DNA of 64,000 nucleotides from NCBI GenBank assembly GCA_951406725.2, contig OX597821.1, positions 108,872,001-108,936,000 of the forward strand. Direction: 5' to 3'. This DNA comes from Octopus vulgaris (Eukaryota). The notes below the pieces were generated by a model. The model saw only the letters and a list, made by a program, of their open reading frames with translations, did no database searches and was not told where the DNA came from. The position numbers and the translations under genes were made by a program. This document shows positions 16,031 through 63,493 of this stretch, one piece after another (positions within the stretch are counted from its first letter, which is position 1; every line of letters begins with the position of its first letter).

Positions 16031-16702
16031 CAGTAGTTTTATTTTTATAGTGTGCTTTCACTTCACTACCGAGCGCAGCTCTGTGTGCCTTGGGTATGTG
16101 CTGTGATTTGTTGTGATGCTCTGATGGTTATTGTATGGAAAGTGTTCTGCGTAGGATGTGTGCAGTACCTAGTAGTGCAATTTTCTGTATGTTATATGTG
16201 TTTGTAAGTCCTGGTGTTTTTGTTATGTATTTGTCTGAATATTTTTTTATCATGCCTAATGCACCTACTATGATAGGAATTGTTTCTGTTTTCAGATTCC
16301 ACATTCTAGTTACCTCTATTTCCAGGTCTTTGTATTTTGAGAGTTTCTCCATTTCTTTTAGAGACACGTTGTCATCTGCCGGTATTGATACATCAATTAG
16401 AAAGCATTTTTTTTCTTCATGGTCTCTGACAACTATATCTGGTCTGTTGGCCTTAATTTCTCTGTCTGTGTGTATCGGCATATCCCAGAGTATGGTTGCT
16501 TTCTCGTTTTCTGTGACCTTTTCTGGTGTGTGCCTATACCATCTTTTTTCTGTTGTTATTCCATAATGTTGGCATAGCTTCCAATGTATGTAAGTTCCAA
16601 CTCTGTCATGTCTGTGAATATATTCCTTCTTAGCCAGGACTGGGCAGCTAGAGATAATATGATTTATTGTTTCTTGTCCATCTCCACATATTCTGCAGTT
16701 AC
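16031..16702 (-). mobile_element. Third R4/Dong LINE 3' fragment of the same family
   Basis: ORF 16128-16481 is almost identical to the RLE domain at 42661-43014. Flanked by (TTA)n on +. Confidence 0.9.
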
Positions 16703-16792
<90 letters not shown>

Positions 16793-19083: not shown

Positions 19084-19560
19084 TTAGAGACAAAACCACT
19101 ATTATGCAAATCAAACAAAGAAAGACTTAATCCAATTCATAAAAAATTTTATATAAATTAAATAAAATTAAATTAGCCACTACATAACTTAAAATTGAAT
19201 AGAAGATCTGAAAACCACCTGATGAATGTCCTTAGAAGAGACACGAAACAATTGTAGTGGCTAATTTAATTTTATTTAATTTATATAAAATTTTTTATGT
19301 ATTGGATTAAGTCTTTCTTTGTTTGATTTGCATAATAGTGGTTTTGTCTCTAATTAATATTATATAATATTTTACTATAAAATTTATTTAATTTATATAA
19401 AATTTTTTATGTATTGGTTTAAGTCTTTCTTTGTTTGATTTGCATAATAGTGGTTTTGTCTCTAATTAATATTATATAATATATTACTATAAAATTGGAT
19501 TCAATCCTAAATCTGATTTTTCCCTGTAAATTTGGATTTATTCCCTAATATTTATTATTA
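19071..19560 (+). mobile_element. Penelope-type fold-back terminal remnant (inverted arms 19071-19184 / 19253-19366, partial duplicate 19383-19480)
   Basis: ~114-bp near-perfect inverted repeat enclosing a hammerhead, inserted in the (TA)n tract of a SINE. Confidence 0.65.
19215..19260 (+). ncRNA. Minimal hammerhead ribozyme
   Basis: CCAC-CUGAUGA-aUGUC..GACAc-GAAAC-AAUU-GUA/GUGG, with palindromic stem III ACAAUUGU. Confidence 0.7.
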
Positions 19561-20690: not shown

Positions 20691-20852
20691 TATACAGACA
20701 TACACATATATGCGCACAAATACTTACATACACTAAAACACACACACACACACGTACACACGCACATGCGTACATACATAGATACATACATATATGCATA
20801 CATATATATTACAATTAATAAGAGGAATGACCACTAAAGTGGATTCCTATAC

Positions 20853-21267
20853 GCTAGAAATAGACGTCGAATCACCTTACCACAAAGAGTGTGTTCTCAA
20901 GAAAACAAAACCAGTAAACGCCAAAATGTAAAAAATAAGCAAAGCAAATGAAAATTTACAAAATAAAATGATAACATACGTATCATGATTTCCTTATTAC
21001 ATGAATTTTCTTTCGGGTGAACGTCTCTGTGTATAGTTCTGGGAAAAATGTTTTGAAATACGACAGGCTACGCTGAGGATTTAGAGATACTTGCATCTTG
21101 CATATTGCATTTTTCAAGTATTAATAATGAAATCATGATACGTCGGTAATCGTTTTGTTTTGTAAATTTTCATTTACCTTGCTTATTTTTTACATTTTGG
21201 CGTTTGCTAACATTTTTTCTTGGGAACACACACTTTGCGGTAAGACGATTTGACGTTTATCTTTAGC
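20853..21267 (+). mobile_element. Penelope-type fold-back remnant with a degenerate hammerhead (21070-21143)
   Basis: Diverged inverted arms ~20853-20998 / 21123-21267. Motif reads ACG-CUGAGGA-..AUACUUG..CAAGUAU..-GAAA-UCAUGA-UA/CGU. Confidence 0.55.
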
Positions 21268-21459
21268 ATATATGAATATATATATATAACATAAGGGGGA
21301 TCAGCCATCTGAATGTGGCTAGGGACAGGGCGGGGTAGTGGGGGTGTTACTGATGCATTTAGCCCCAGGCGATCGTCGACGTCACCAGAAGGGCTGACAC
21401 CATCTCGGTGTCCTTGCCAGCCTGCAAAGGAGATCAGCCTCCCGAAGATACGGATACTA

Positions 21460-21502
21460 CATACGGACCGGTTTCGAGGTTATTGCCTCTTGTCAACGCA
21501 TG
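21460..21502 (-). ncRNA. Type I hammerhead ribozyme (unit 1), U3-A8 core variant
   Basis: Minus strand reads CAUGCG-UUGACAA-GAGG(CAAUAA)CCUC-GAAAC-CG-GUC/CGUAUG. Stem I has 6 bp, stem II 4 bp, and stem III is the palindrome ACCGGU. Confidence 0.85.
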
Positions 21503-21817
21503 GCAAGTACCGTTCTTCGTTGAGGGACTCCCTCTACAGGCTGGATATATAGATTTTCACAGTAACCACAGTCACTGGCGTAGAAAATCCGTTCGAAAAC
21601 AATAATAAATCTCTGAGCGAGATATAAACAGTAACTGCTCTATAACATAAGGGGGATCAGCCATCTGAATGTGGCTAGGGACAGGGCGGGGTAGTGGGGG
21701 TGTTACTGATGCATTTAGCCCCAGGCGATCGTCGACGTCACCAGAAGGGCTGACACCATCTCGGTAGTCTTGCCAGCCTGCAAAGGGAGATCAGCCTCCC
21801 CGAAGATACGGATACTA

Positions 21818-21860
21818 CATACGGACCGGTTTCGAGGTTATTGCCTCTTGTCAACGCATG
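21818..21860 (-). ncRNA. Type I hammerhead ribozyme (unit 2)
   Basis: Motif identical to unit 1. Confidence 0.85.
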
Positions 21861-22177
21861 GCAAGTACCGTTCTTCGTTGAGGGATTCCCTCTACAGGCT
21901 GGATATATAGGGATTTTCACAGTAACCACAGTCACTGGCGTAGAAAATCCGTTCGAAAACAATAATAAATCTCTGAGCGAGATATAAACAGTAACTGCTC
22001 TATAACATAAGGGGGATCAGCCATCTGAATGTGGCTAGGGACAGGGCGGGGTAGTGGGGGTGTTACTGATGCATTTAGCCCCAGGCGATCGTCGACGTCA
22101 CCAGAAGGGCTGACACCATCTCGGTGTCCTTGCCAGCCTGCAAAGGGAGATCAGCCTCTCCGAAGATACGGATACTA

Positions 22178-22220
22178 CATACGGACCGGTTTCGAGGTTA
22201 TTGCCTCTTGTCAACGCATG
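22178..22220 (-). ncRNA. Type I hammerhead ribozyme (unit 3)
   Basis: Motif identical to unit 1. Confidence 0.85.
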
Positions 22221-22746
22221 GCAAGTACCGTTCTTCGTTGAGGGACTCCTCTACAGGCTGGATATATAGGGATTTTCACAGTAACCACAGTCACTGGCGT
22301 AGAAAATCCGTTCGAAAACAATAATAAATCTCTGAGCGAGATATAAACAGTAACTGCTCTATAACATAAGGGGGATCAGCCATCTGAATGTGGCTAGGGA
22401 CAGGGCGGGGTAGTGGGGGTGTTACTGATGCATTTAGCCCCAGGCGATCGTCGACGTCACCAGAAGGGCTGACACCATCTCGGTGTCCTTGCCAGCCTGC
22501 AAAGGGAGATCAGCCTCCCCGAAGATACGGATACTACATACGGACGCCCCCACTACCCCGCCCTGTCCCTAGCCACATTCAGATGGCTGATCCCCCTTAT
22601 GTTATAGAGCAGTTACTGTTTATATCTCGCTCAGAGATTTATTATTGTTTTCGAACGGATTTTCTACGCCAGTGACTGTGGTTACTGTGAAAATCCCTAT
22701 ATATCCAGCCTGTAGAGGGAGTCCCTCAACGAAGAACGGTACTTGC

Positions 22747-22789
22747 CATGCGTTGACAAGAGGCAATAACCTCGAAACCGGTCCGTATG
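22747..22789 (+). ncRNA. Type I hammerhead ribozyme (inverted arm); predicted cleavage after 22783
   Basis: catgcg ttgacaa gagg caataa cctc gaaac cg gtc cgtatg read directly on +. Stem I extends through cgaaga/tcttcg and ccagcctgtagagggag/ctccctttgcaggctgg. Confidence 0.85.
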
Positions 22790-23016
22790 TAGTATCCGTA
22801 TCTTCGGAGAGGCTGATCTCCCTTTGCAGGCTGGCAAGGACACCGAGATGGTGTCAGCCCTCTGGTGACGTCGACGATCGCCTGGGGCTAAATGCATCAG
22901 TAACACCCCCACTACCCCGCCCTGTCCCTAGCCACATTCAGATGGCTGATCCCCCTTATGTTATAGAGCAGTTACTGTTTATATCTCGCTCAGAGATTTA
23001 TTATTGAATATATATA

Positions 23017-23080
<64 letters not shown>

Positions 23081-32788: not shown

Positions 32789-33421
32789 TTACTATTTTTA
32801 AATCCCACAGCGAGAGATATTCAGCAACAGTACTTTGTAGTAAAGATTGTTTGCCAACACAACATGGCAGTCTCGGTTTAGGACGAATGTTGCTGTAATT
32901 TAGCTCCAGTAGACATCGTCTCCAGCTAGCTATACAACACGATATGTGTCCTCATATTTTCGAACAAGGGAATCTAGCACCCCAACTCAGCTCAAAACAA
33001 TATCTGTGTATCGCGATTTCCGGGTTATTTCCCTTCATCCGACAGAATAATTATTCGGCTAGAAATGGCACTGCAAAATTCTCGTTCGAAGTATATAGTT
33101 TTCAAAGTGACAATTAGTCACTGATCTATAAATCTGAAAATTACTATTTTTAAATCTCACAGCGAGAGATATTCAGCATCAGTACTTTGTAGTAAAGATT
33201 GTTTGCCAACATAACATGGCAGTCCTGGTTTAGGATGAATGTTGCTGTAATTTAGCCCCAGGAGACATCGTCTCCAGCTGGCTACACGACACAATGTAAG
33301 GAATGTAAGGACACATATCGTGTCGTATAGCCAGCTGAAGACGATGTCTCCAAGTGCTAAATTACAGAAACATTCGTCTTAAACCGGGACTGCTATGTTG
33401 TGTTGGCAAACAATCTTTATT
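32789..33421 (-). mobile_element. Second retrozyme-like insertion (352-bp unit x ~1.45 plus inverted arm), nested in a dead R4/Dong LINE
   Basis: ttactatttttaaat recurs at 32789 and 33141. An inverted copy lies at ~33306-33420. A 12-bp TSD ctaaaggaagaa sits at 32777-32788 and 33422-33433. Confidence 0.7.
33003..33046 (-). ncRNA. Degenerate minimal hammerhead ribozyme
   Basis: Minus strand reads UCUGU-CGGAUGA-A-GGG(AAAUAA)CCC-G-GAAA-UCGCGA-UA-CACAGA. Stem III is palindromic. There is one core mismatch versus CUGANGA. Confidence 0.55.
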
Positions 33422-37937: not shown

Positions 37938-39212
37938 TTAACACCATGACATGTCTGTTTCTACTTTTTTGTTGTGAATTTTAATGAGGATGTCGAGGAA
38001 GGGAATTTGTTGAGGGCTGTATTCCATTGTGAAAATGATGTTTGTGTTGAGCCCATTTATAAGGGTGTGAAATTCTTTAAGCTTCTCGATGGTTTCGGGC
38101 CAAAGGATGAAGCAGTCATCAAGATATCTCTTCCAGTTCTTCTCTATGTGTGTGTGGAGAGTAGTGCCAAATTGGTTAAGAACCTTATTATAGAGGGTGA
38201 TTTCCAGGTATGCCATGACTAGGTTGGCGTAAGTGGGAGCTGTTTTCGTTCCCATTGCCGTCCCTGATTTCTGTCTGTAGAATTTGTTGTTGAAGGTGAA
38301 GAAAGTATTCTCTAAGATGAATTTCAGTCCTTCTAAAATAAATTCCTTTTTGATGCGGTGTGGGAGTTCGTTGGAGTAATTATCCAGCCAGAATTGGATA
38401 GCTTCTATTCCTAGGTTGTGGGGGATGTTGGAGTAAAGATTAACTACATCGAATGTTACTAGCAGGGTTTGTTCAGCAAGAAGTGTATTGGGGAGGTGGT
38501 TGAGCATATCTAGATCGTCCCTTATGTAGCTTTTAATGTGTTTGAGGAAGGGCTTAAGAAGGGTATCAATGAAGTTGCTAAGGCGGTGGGTTTCGCAAGC
38601 GGGACCTGCTATTATAGGTCTCAATTTGAGGTCATTTGGTGAGGGGACATTGATTACAGAGTTTGTGGCTTCCTTGCATGCCTTACTTATTAATTCGCTT
38701 TTATGAATTTTGGGAATACCGTAGAAGAGGCTGGTTTTACTAGTGAAATTTGTGATGAAGTTGAATTCTTTGTTAGTGAGTTCTTCTTTGTGGGGGTTGA
38801 TCAGGGTTTTTAAGTTTCTCATAATTTTCTGTTGATTGTAGTGTTCAGCCTTTTCGTAATATGTTCCATTTTCCAAGGTGGAGAGTGCTAAGTTGATATA
38901 GTATTCTGTCTCCATTAAGACTACTGCACTTCCTTTGTCGGCCTCTTTAATGGTGATAGATCTTTCATTTTTTAATTTGTTTAATTCTTCCCACTCTTTC
39001 TTGTTGAGGTTTGGTTTGGGTTTTGATTTGTGTAAGTGTTGGTAAGGGAAGTTTGTAATGTGCTCACAGAATTCGTCTAGGATTTTATTTCTACCTTTTG
39101 GTGGGGTGTAGTTGCTTTTATTTCTAGCTAGTGACTCATCCTCATTGTGCTGGTCGAATAGCTCCTCACTAAGTTGTAATTTTCTACAAAATTCTGTAAT
39201 GTCCTCCTTCAT
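37938..39212 (-). CDS. Penelope-like element reverse transcriptase (truncated before the endonuclease)
   Basis: PLE RT motifs ADKG, FYGIPKIHK, LRPIIAG, FDVVNLYSNIP, QKSGTAMG, RYLDD and PFLDILI. An upstream LLSKGLKF motif lies near 39250. Confidence 0.92.
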   Translation of the reverse strand: MKEDITEFCRKLQLSEELFDQHNEDESLARNKSNYTPPKGRNKILDEFCEHITNFPYQHLHKSKPKPNLNKKEWEELNKLKNERSITIKEADKGSAVVLMETEYYINLALSTLENGTYYEKAEHYNQQKIMRNLKTLINPHKEELTNKEFNFITNFTSKTSLFYGIPKIHKSELISKACKEATNSVINVPSPNDLKLRPIIAGPACETHRLSNFIDTLLKPFLKHIKSYIRDDLDMLNHLPNTLLAEQTLLVTFDVVNLYSNIPHNLGIEAIQFWLDNYSNELPHRIKKEFILEGLKFILENTFFTFNNKFYRQKSGTAMGTKTAPTYANLVMAYLEITLYNKVLNQFGTTLHTHIEKNWKRYLDDCFILWPETIEKLKEFHTLINGLNTNIIFTMEYSPQQIPFLDILIKIHNKKVETDMSWC

Positions 39213-39698
39213 TTCGTAGTAGTTTGGACGTGGGGGGGGTGAATTTAAGACCTTTGGAGAGTAAGTTGAGAAGGTTGGGGTTGGGTTCTGTATTGGTTAA
39301 ATTGATGACTTTAATTACTTTCTGTTTCTCTTCCCTGTCCTGTGTTATTTTGTTTGCCTGTATCTGTGTGCTGTGTCTAAAAAATGGTTGGGGTAGAGGG
39401 GTTGTCTGTTGGTGTTAAGAGGTCCTGTGTGTTTGTTATATTCCTTGTTGTGAAATATGGTTCGGGTTCGTGGTTGTGGATAGAATGGGTTGTTCCTGTA
39501 TTGCGGGTTTTGGTGTGTGTTTCTTTGTGTCATGTTGGATTGTGGTGATATGAGTGGCCTACGTGGGTGCTTGTATCGAGTGGTAGGGGCTTGTTGTGTA
39601 TTGTGAGAGTTGAGAAAGTGAAAATGGAGAGATAATGGGAAAAAAACGGTGCGAGAAAAAAAAAAACAGTGTACAGTTCAGTGGTCCAACATGGCACA

Positions 39699-41784: not shown

Positions 41785-41810
41785 TAATAATTATTATTTA
41801 TTATTATTAT

Positions 41811-43117
41811 TGTCCCAGTTATAAGTTACAGCTACAATATCCTTAACTGGACACGATATGAACTGACCAAAATAGATAGGAAAACAAGAAAAATAATGAC
41901 AGGATCTAGGATGCATCACCCAAAATCTGACATAGAAAGACTATATATACAACGTATAGAAGGTGGTAGAGGCCTTATACAGCTGGAAAACTACTATAAA
42001 ATAACCACCATAGGACTGCAAAAATATCTACTTCAGAAGGAAGGAAAACTGATCCAGATAGCGGCAAAACACGAGCAAAACAAAAAACTGTTCTCAGTAT
42101 TTAAGGAAGCTGACAAATACAAACAAGAAATCATACCACCTAATAAACATGAAGAAGAAGAAGAAGAAGATGAAGAAACAACAAAAGCTATAAAACAAAT
42201 GAAATCCAAACTAAAAATAGAACAGCAACGAACCATGATAAAACGATGGCAAGAAAAGCCCCTTCATGGTAAATACTGGACTAAACTAAACGCAAAAGAA
42301 ATAGACAAAGAAAAATCCCAGCAATGGTTGAGAAGCTCAGGACTCAAAGCAGAAACAGAGGGATTTTTAATTGCAGCACAAGACCAAAGCCTCCCCACCA
42401 GAAATTAACAAAAACATGTAATGAAAAGAAATATTACAAGTAACTGCAGAATATGTGGAGATGGACAAGAAACAATAAATCATATTATCTCTAGCTGCCC
42501 AGTCCTGGCTAAGAAGGAATATATTCACAGACATGACAGAGTTGGAACTTACATACATTGGAAGCTATGCCAACATTATGGAATAACAACAGAAAAAAGA
42601 TGGTATAGGCACACACCAGAAAAGGTCACAGAAAACGAGAAAGCAACCATACTCTGGGATATGCCGATACACACAGATAGAGAAATTAAGGCCAACAGAC
42701 CAGATATAGTTGTCAGAGACCATGAAGAAAAAAAATGCTTTCTAATTGATGTATCAGTACCGACAGATGACAACGTGTCTCTAAAAGAAATGGAGAAACT
42801 CTCAAAATACAAAGACCTGGAAATAGAGGTAACTAGAATGTGGAATCTGAAAACAGAAACAATTCCTATCATAGTAGGTGCATTAGGCATGATAAAAAAA
42901 TATTCAGACAAATACATAACAAAAACACCAGGACTTACAAACACATATAACATACAGAAAATTGCACTACTAGGCACTGCACACATCCTACGCAGAACAC
43001 TTTCCATACAATAACCATCAGAGCATCACAACAAATCACAGCACATACCCAAGGCACACAGAGCTGCGCTCGGTAGTGAAGTGAAAGCACGCTATAAAAA
43101 TAAAAATAAAACTACTG
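41811..43117 (+). mobile_element. R4/Dong-clade LINE, 5'-truncated (RT C-terminus, CCHC knuckle, RLE endonuclease), inserted in (TAA)n
   Basis: ORFs 41896-42408 and 42421-43014 carry CRICG..ETINHIISSC, RHD, RPDIV and D....K..KY. The 3' UTR ends in (TAA)n. There is one in-frame stop at 42406. Confidence 0.9.
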
Positions 43118-43121
43118 AATG

Positions 43122-43186
<65 letters not shown>

Positions 43187-43229
43187 AATAATAATAATGA
43201 TGATAATAATAATGATAATAATAATAATG

Positions 43230-44578
<1,349 letters not shown>

Positions 44579-62611: not shown

Positions 62612-62779
62612 CATACATATACATATATATACATATATATAAACATATAGTCGTAAAAGAATTATTGATAACGAACATAACTTACGCACCGATACAAAGC
62701 GAATGAAGGCAGATAACCCTTATTAATCCCCTATTATCTATCTAAAAGTAAATATAACACCTTCAAAAGTAATTACGCT

Positions 62780-63493
62780 ATGAATACTAGTAAAAATATT
62801 TGGTTAATAATTCCTTACGGGAGACAAATTAAATCTAATCTCCCACTGCTGTTTCGTCAAGCTATTGCTAGGAATTTTCCAAACAATTCTAGATATTACT
62901 CTATAATCAATTCACATAAGGTTAGGATAGGTTTTTCAAACACAAAAAATCTCTTGCAAATTATCTCTTCTCATAATAACAAACTGTTAAATATTAATAC
63001 ATTTACTAATACTAACATTAATTTAGCTAATACCATCCAACCCTCTAGAAATATTAATAACAAGGTTATTGTATCTGAAGTCAATTCCAATAGAATTAAG
63101 TTTATGTCAAGTAACTCTAAGATTAAAAATTCTATATACCAGTGTATAATCAGTATTCGTAATAAAGTACGATTTTACATTGGAAGCACATCGTTAGAGT
63201 TATCTAAAATAATTTCTATCCATTACTCAACATTTAGGGATAGAAATAAACGGAATAGTACCGGTCTCAGCAAACTGATTTGGGATTTAAAAGACCACAA
63301 TGAACAATTTCATTTAGAATGGTTGATCCTCTCAATTTCGATACCATCTGACAAAGGCAAGAAATTCTGTCTTTTCTGCAATTCTGAGCTATTTTTCATT
63401 ATTTTTTCTAAAAATACTCTAGTAAACACGGTTATAGAGCAAGCATACAGATGTAAGCATTGGCAAAAACATACATTTAGTGCATATAAGTAA
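62780..63493 (+). CDS. Penelope-like element C-terminus with GIY-YIG endonuclease (5'-truncated)
   Basis: IYQC...FYIGST, T.LSK.IW.LK and C..C..E...N...E...C.H motifs, typical of PLE GIY-YIG ends. Confidence 0.8.
   Translation: MNTSKNIWLIIPYGRQIKSNLPLLFRQAIARNFPNNSRYYSIINSHKVRIGFSNTKNLLQIISSHNNKLLNINTFTNTNINLANTIQPSRNINNKVIVSEVNSNRIKFMSSNSKIKNSIYQCIISIRNKVRFYIGSTSLELSKIISIHYSTFRDRNKRNSTGLSKLIWDLKDHNEQFHLEWLILSISIPSDKGKKFCLFCNSELFFIIFSKNTLVNTVIEQAYRCKHWQKHTFSAYK

Follow-up and report, generated by a model that had tools for sequence, protein, structure and literature searches.

The window analysed here is a 64,000-nt stretch of the Octopus vulgaris genome (assembly GCA_951406725.2, contig OX597821.1, positions 108,872,001 to 108,936,000 of the forward strand), taken from a 2.8-Gb assembly that is rich in microsatellites. 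It contains an insertion built from a tandemly repeated unit of 359-360 bp. The units of the forward array, termed arm A, start at 21285, 21641, 22001, and 22360, and the fourth of these ends at unit position 186 when 22001 is numbered as unit position 1. Arm A adjoins an inverted arm, termed arm B, in a head-to-head arrangement (Table 1). With the predicted hammerhead on the minus strand, the plus strand would be the cDNA strand, as the earlier annotation had assumed. The sequence across the arm junction is unique in the assembly, and a single open reading frame of at least 120 aa overlaps the element, which is a 138-aa frame that simply runs from stop to stop. A first-pass annotation of this DNA had proposed that the whole structure arose in one insertion event, and the 15-nt duplication at both ends bears this out. 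The same 15-mer occurs six times within the window when both strands are considered.

Table 1. Features of the two-arm insertion, in window coordinates
Feature	Position	Strand	Description
Left target-site duplication	21273..21287	+	TGAATATATATATAT, 15 nt; final 3 nt are also the first 3 nt of unit 1
Arm A	21285..22545	+	3.5 tandem units of 356-360 bp; begins at unit position 1
Unit 1 hammerhead (U3-A8 core)	21460..21502	-	predicted cut 21465/21466, read through
Unit 2 hammerhead, type I	21818..21860	-	predicted cut 21823/21824, read through
Rare T, unit position 159	22159	+	matched by A at 22808 in arm B
Unit 3 hammerhead, type I	22178..22220	-	predicted cut 22183/22184, read through
Arm junction	22537..22547	+	3 nt beyond predicted bond 22542/22543; 2-nt microhomology AC plus one mismatched G
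Arm B (inverted)	22544 (or 22547)..23006	-	463 nt; outer end at unit position 319, one full unit, inner end at 60-63
Arm B complete hammerhead	22747..22789	+	predicted cut 22783/22784, read through
Tail	22966..23006	-	41 nt, unit positions 319-359; at the outer end of arm B only
Right target-site duplication	23005..23019	+	TGAATATATATATAT; first 2 nt overlap arm B; runs into (TA)n

The locus, which is known from the assembly sequence alone, is likely to be real. By the features listed above, the element is a copy of a dispersed, noncoding 359-bp tandem repeat with a predicted hammerhead, arranged in two head-to-head arms. The best reading is that it represents a nonautonomous, Penelope-type retrozyme.

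Additional repeats lie nearby. Just to the left of the insertion, an inverted repeat (20850-21275; arms 20913-20999 and 21122-21208, 90% complementary) is repetitive in public contigs and is possibly another two-arm element or a MITE. An older sister element at 32789-33420 has a period of about 350 bp, a similar tail, and an inverted arm that lacks the tail, and it carries a decayed hammerhead-like motif on the minus strand near 33020-33050. Isolated hammerhead-like pattern matches were also observed at 19219 (plus strand) and 27582 (minus strand), the latter with a U3-A8 core and GAAACCGGTA.

On its minus strand, every unit carries a type I hammerhead that is predicted by a descriptor match. 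The pattern (C3/U3)UGAN(G8/A8)A ... GAAA ... NUH is present together with helices I, II, and III, and three complete motifs are found in arm A, one per unit. The predicted parts are a 6-bp helix I (CAUGCG/CGUAUG), the core UUGACAA, a helix II of GAGG/CCUC, the GAAA segment, a palindromic helix III (ACCGGU), and GUC at the cut. In unit 4 the predicted scissile bond falls at unit position 183/184, and the ribozyme and cut site given in the first-pass annotation are correct for a hammerhead that cleaves after GUC on the minus strand. Rfam hammerhead models returned nothing at gathering score in the window and nothing at E<=10 in 22000-22360, which is likely due to the core variant and the minimal helix III. 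With the motif missed by Rfam, the hammerhead was established by the descriptor and by variation among family members.

This variation supports the assignment, since the core change is compensatory and the helices are kept. Across the sampled loci there were 202 descriptor matches, comprising 38 with the canonical C3-G8 core (CUGACGA) and 164 with the compensatory U3-A8 core, 15 of which belong to an autonomous family described below. The repeat family alone therefore contributes 38 and 149, respectively. Helix II is paired at 4/4 positions in 193 of the 202 matches, and helix I at 6/6 positions in 167. The U3-A8 change is known from Penelope-like elements of Schistosoma (accessible text of PMC4209133).

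Copies of the repeat are numerous enough that its architecture can be counted. A 17-nt motif from the start of the unit has 399 exact matches in the genome, and its control has none. Sampling 139 elements yielded 65 simple head-to-head pairs, 67 single arms, and seven complex arrangements. The outer arm ends in this sample cluster at unit positions ~1 and ~317. Among the 57 pairs in which both ends are canonical, 54 combine position 1 with ~317, three have position 1 at both ends, and none has 317 at both ends. Random pairing would be expected to yield only 28 such mixed pairs (P=2e-13). In 54 of 57 canonical pairs, one arm is thus accompanied by an inverted, 5'-truncated copy, and just one of the two ends bears a tail. 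The same pairing holds for all 19 further canonical pairs that were read by eye in an unselected set of loci (99 of the first 100 listed among 297 matches).

Target duplications of 7-14 nt, mostly 11-14 nt, were found in 17 of the 25 two-arm loci whose flanks are not (TA)n. Runs of (TA)4 or more lie no more than 25 nt from an end in 99 of the 139 elements, a raw count without genomic background that is in keeping with a bias for (TA)n or AT-rich targets. Arm divergence is 1.7% inside a locus versus 5.1% between loci (48 of 49 loci). Away from the canonical starts, arm ends are scattered at about 0.0035 ends per nucleotide, and the overlaps at arm junctions are mostly 0-8 nt long.

These counts bear directly on how the two arms were made. 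We conclude that each arm is likely to be a separate target-primed cDNA produced by a Penelope-like enzyme, and that the junction between them is likely to be a chance truncation. The first-pass annotation had offered a different model, in which reverse transcriptase ran off at or near the self-cleaved 5' end of the RNA and then snapped back onto its own nascent cDNA to copy unit 4, unit 3, and the end of unit 2. This model predicts that the inverted arm should lie inside the first arm throughout the family. At the present locus it does, but the prediction fails at 32 of the 54 mixed pairs, where neither arm lies within its partner and fold-back copying is therefore impossible. Containment occurs in 22 of the 54, and is not commoner than in shuffled pairs (28.6 +/- 3.0). 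Furthermore, many tail arms include positions 317-359 that are absent from the partner, and hence an RNA template is needed. Arm B itself ends at the fixed second start site of the family (319), an end point that is not a prediction of snap-back and would occur by chance in about 2% of cases unless a nuclease cuts there. Self-priming has nevertheless been proposed for head-to-head Penelope copies (available text of PMC3846280), as has nuclease resolution to account for the tail (available text of PMC8557442), and a tail arm does lie inside the other arm in five of the 54 pairs, the present locus being one of them.

The first-pass annotation also drew attention to the proximity of the junction to the predicted cut. 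The forward array was reported to end as CATACG|GAC at 22537-22545, 1-3 nt past the bond, and both the coordinates and the letters hold, with the last base 3 nt past the bond. The interpretation as run-off at a cleaved 5' end does not follow, however. The cDNA of a cleaved RNA should end in CATACG, and the GAC present here is complementary to the GUC belonging to the other cleavage product, so run-off is unsupported. The AC could be microhomology with arm B, which would place the end of arm A at 184-186; an end at 183 is compatible only with an untemplated G. A priori, a junction this near the bond has a chance of about 4% per two-arm locus.

If the ribozyme had left its mark on these insertions, then array ends or inversion points in other copies should be enriched at the GUC site, and no significant enrichment was observed. 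The first collection drew on 133 loci and comprised 200 arms whose starts are canonical; exact duplicates, edge copies, duplicated segments (L072, L073, L136, L170), a 21-nt chance match (L138), and one further locus (L030) were left out. Queries spanning the cut site had been used to choose part of its loci, which biases this collection against enrichment; two of the 200 arms end at 183-186 (2.1 expected) and five at 181-187 (3.7 expected). A second collection of 177 passes, anchored upstream at 152-171, is biased towards enrichment because it includes the present locus and L179. It holds no end at 183, and seven ends at 181-187 versus 4.5 expected (P=0.17). In the unselected set, none of the 99 passes ends at the bond, one ends at 183-186 (1.4 expected), and five end at 181-187, or within about 3 nt of the bond (2.3 expected, P=0.085). 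Of the 97 passes in this set that reach position 178, 90 continue to 191 or beyond. A subset overlapping it has four ends at 181-187 versus 1.5 expected (P=0.062).

An exact-pattern search of the whole genome gave a similar picture. The templated G follows the bond in 258 matches, and another base does so in two, neither of which is an arm end, as one carries a 1-nt deletion and the other is unrelated sequence. Nine matches deviate at 187, of which six are point changes and three are arm ends at exactly 186 (the present locus, L173, and L179); these genome-wide counts cover ends at 183 and at 186. Exact run-off at the bond is rare or absent, and there may be a slight, nonsignificant excess of ends close to it (181-187).

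Most copies instead read through the site. At least one bond is crossed by 135 of the 200 arms, which rules out a cleaved linear monomer as the template. At least two bonds are crossed by 19 of the 200, and the earlier suggestion that a multimeric or circular ribozyme RNA was reverse transcribed is upheld by this finding. Because other copies read through the cut site, the location of the junction 3 bases from it is likely to be a chance truncation point, and it cannot be used as a fossil of ribozyme cleavage.

A hybrid history can also be envisaged, in which arm A ran off the cleaved 5' end at 183 and acquired a G without a template before being fused to an arm B that had its own priming event. 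Such a history would account for an end no more than 3 nt from the bond and for the slight excess at 181-187, and it leaves only the G to be explained if the AC derives from arm B. We nevertheless consider it unlikely. It requires that a G was added by chance and that position 61 was substituted, and arm A had already crossed three intact ribozyme bonds before it ended. Moreover, three in four true run-offs should appear as an arm end at 183 followed by a base other than G, and none of the 260 genome-wide matches is of this form.

The annotation had stated that the inverted arm copies unit 3, and in one respect this is correct: the T at unit position 159 is common to unit 3 and arm B and is found in only two of 125 passes at other loci. 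Unit 1 is deleted at 159 and is thus untypable there. Arm B is not a perfect copy, since it lacks the 1-nt deletion of unit 3 at 247 and has its own deletion at 105. These two indels are its only differences from unit 3, as compared with five differences from unit 1. When aligned with the stretch of the array at 21960-22422, arm B shows three differences, and in the two other registers it shows six and six.

A match to so rare a base needs a cause. If both arms were primed from adjacent sites on one RNA, arm B should resemble unit 1 rather than unit 3, and this counts against dual priming. The shared T159 fits the snap-back model, for which the geometry is suitable at this locus, and it likewise argues against dual priming here. 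Containment of arm B in arm A, closest to the register of units 2, 3, and 4, is a further point in favor of that model. Even so, given the absence from arm B of the unit 3 deletion, the GAC beyond the bond, and the family-wide counts, we judge snap-back to be very unlikely. The match to unit 3 can arise if both primers read one heterogeneous multimeric RNA, or else through conversion inside the hairpin, polishing, or snap-back. A template whose units were already unlike, or later conversion between inverted copies in register, is the likely source of T159.

In this family there seem to be templates composed of unlike units. One locus with a canonical C3-G8 core (L245:1178-3361; G000:C3, about 51.54 Mb) has an arm of 1895 nt in which three sites vary with a period of three over five units, such that unit 1 equals unit 4 and unit 2 equals unit 5. 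The template may have been a circular trimer, or three units may have been duplicated locally. At another locus (L098), there are four sites at which the first units of the two outer arms match each other but not the second unit. Among other two-arm loci, a rare allele is common to the second arm and the first unit three times, and to the second arm and a later unit once. A strict version of dual priming can be formulated, wherein one enzyme dimer would prime both target strands from two fixed sites 41-45 nt apart on one multimeric circle and roll around it in each of the two reactions, with T159 and L245 marking heterogeneous circles. We put this version forward tentatively, as possible rather than probable.

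A fold-back read or an assembly artefact might also create an inverted arm. The array is palindromic, the differences between its units are mostly single-base indels in homopolymers, and among the short-read contigs listed none bridges the junction. Four runs of public contigs yielded fragments of many copies and were uninformative; among the pieces listed, none extends across the junction and none gives a clear empty site. Among the public runs listed as containing the repeat, none is an RNA data set with certainty; the single candidate may be DNA. An artefact would not be expected to leave flanks that are not mirror images, a target duplication at both ends, or an outer end at the canonical tail site, and the same architecture recurs in 65 of the 139 sampled elements. 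Polishing could still account for the T159 match by itself. An artefact is accordingly a highly improbable explanation.

Dual priming by a Penelope-like enzyme remains our preferred explanation, and it may proceed as follows. The minus strand would be transcribed as an uncleaved multimer or a circle. A GIY-YIG nuclease would then make nicks in the two strands of an AT-rich target, offset by about 12-15 nt, as suggested by the target duplication and by in vitro work on another element. Synthesis from one nick would begin at unit position 1, and that from the other nick at ~317, which is 41-45 nt further 3' on the RNA; the ends are observed at these positions, and priming would be their cause. 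The growing arms would pass ribozyme sites and stop at scattered positions, as is seen in the copies. Finally, the two cDNA 3' ends would be joined through microhomology of 0-8 nt. The available text of a study on an anole element (PMC11167929) describes cutting and extension of both strands in vitro, starting at two RNA sites on either side of the tail, with unprocessed RNA being preferred.

The mover is likely to be the enzyme of a Penelope-like element, as far as sequence can indicate. A reverse transcriptase fragment of 452 aa lies in the window (37938-39296, minus strand) and shares 98% identity with a young family whose 784-aa frames are intact. Two young, intact families were traced from this fragment, and their 784-aa frames contain reverse transcriptase and GIY-YIG domains, although the GIY-YIG score of one copy (L217) is just under the Pfam cutoff. 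The second intact family (L216, L217, L218, L222) has a U3-A8 hammerhead with GAAACCGGUA, partial tandems, and head-to-head pairs in which one end is tailed. Its copies end at one of two distances past the cut, about 57 nt or about 92 nt, and its helix III is mostly ACCGG, as in the 359-bp repeat. All three of its head-to-head loci that were seen (L216, L218, L222) combine one short and one tailed arm. Clear tail homology with the 359-bp repeat was found in neither of the two intact families examined, and tail-based pattern searches for an autonomous partner gave three matches and one match, none of which is a partner.

Several related sequences were encountered. Sister noncoding families (L182 and L224:6008-6300) have the same tail and downstream motif, and contig depth over the tail is far above that over the rest of the unit in three runs, which suggests that much more abundant relatives exist. 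Within the window, a 258-aa frame (62717-63493, plus strand) looks, on inspection by eye, like the nuclease region at the C terminus of a Penelope-like element; it has no Pfam match. Several near-identical fragments at 16128-16703 and 41791-44147 resemble the C-terminal part of a non-LTR retrotransposon protein.

The value of this family lies in its being a short, young repeat with hundreds of copies, which lets the known inverted-plus-tail structure of Penelope insertions be counted. The counts favor two RNA-templated priming events over self-priming, and indicate that uncleaved RNA is the usual template, in agreement with the in vitro results for the anole element. On structural grounds, they also speak for the proposed mobilization of animal retrozymes by Penelope-like elements. 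A full-text literature search, with subscription papers and supplements outside its reach, found no paper that, judged by its listing, reports a count of this arm pairing.

Inverted insertions of another kind are produced by LINE-1 twin priming, in which primers from the two target strands generate cDNAs that cover different parts of the RNA, and the inverted part is joined by microhomology. In the octopus repeat, by contrast, the two arms span the same sequence, and each has a fixed starting site.

The repeat is closer to the metazoan non-LTR retrozymes described by Cervera and de la Pena (2020; PMC7229834), which have since been tied to Penelope-like elements (bioRxiv 10.64898/2026.07.22.740005). 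In the accessible text of these two sources, such retrozymes share with the octopus repeat noncoding tandem units that measure 150-450 bp and each carry a single type I hammerhead, target duplications of more than 4 bp, and co-occurrence with autonomous Penelope-like elements. At least two complete motifs, dispersal, and target duplications are all seen in the octopus repeat. It differs in its mostly U3-A8 core and in the frequency of tailed head-to-head pairs, which make up close to half of the sampled insertions; the accessible text of PMC7229834 does not use the word "inverted".

Conversely, an inverted truncated copy and a tail of 30-40 nt at one end are standard for Penelope-like elements (available text of PMC8557442 and PMC3846280). 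Endonuclease-positive Penelope-like insertions resemble the octopus repeat in having a partial tandem with an adjoining inverted 5'-truncated copy, a tail at one end, a (TA)n bias, a hammerhead near the 3' end, and two reverse-transcription start sites (available text of PMC8557442, PMC3846280, and PMC11167929). Unlike these insertions, the octopus repeat has no open reading frame of its own, its tail measures 41-45 nt, and the whole element is one short repeated unit. The U3-A8 hammerhead of Schistosoma likewise has a short palindromic helix III, predicted to act as a dimer, in addition to the same compensatory core change (accessible text of PMC4209133), whereas in the octopus repeat the C3-G8 and U3-A8 cores both occur inside one family and helix I is extended.
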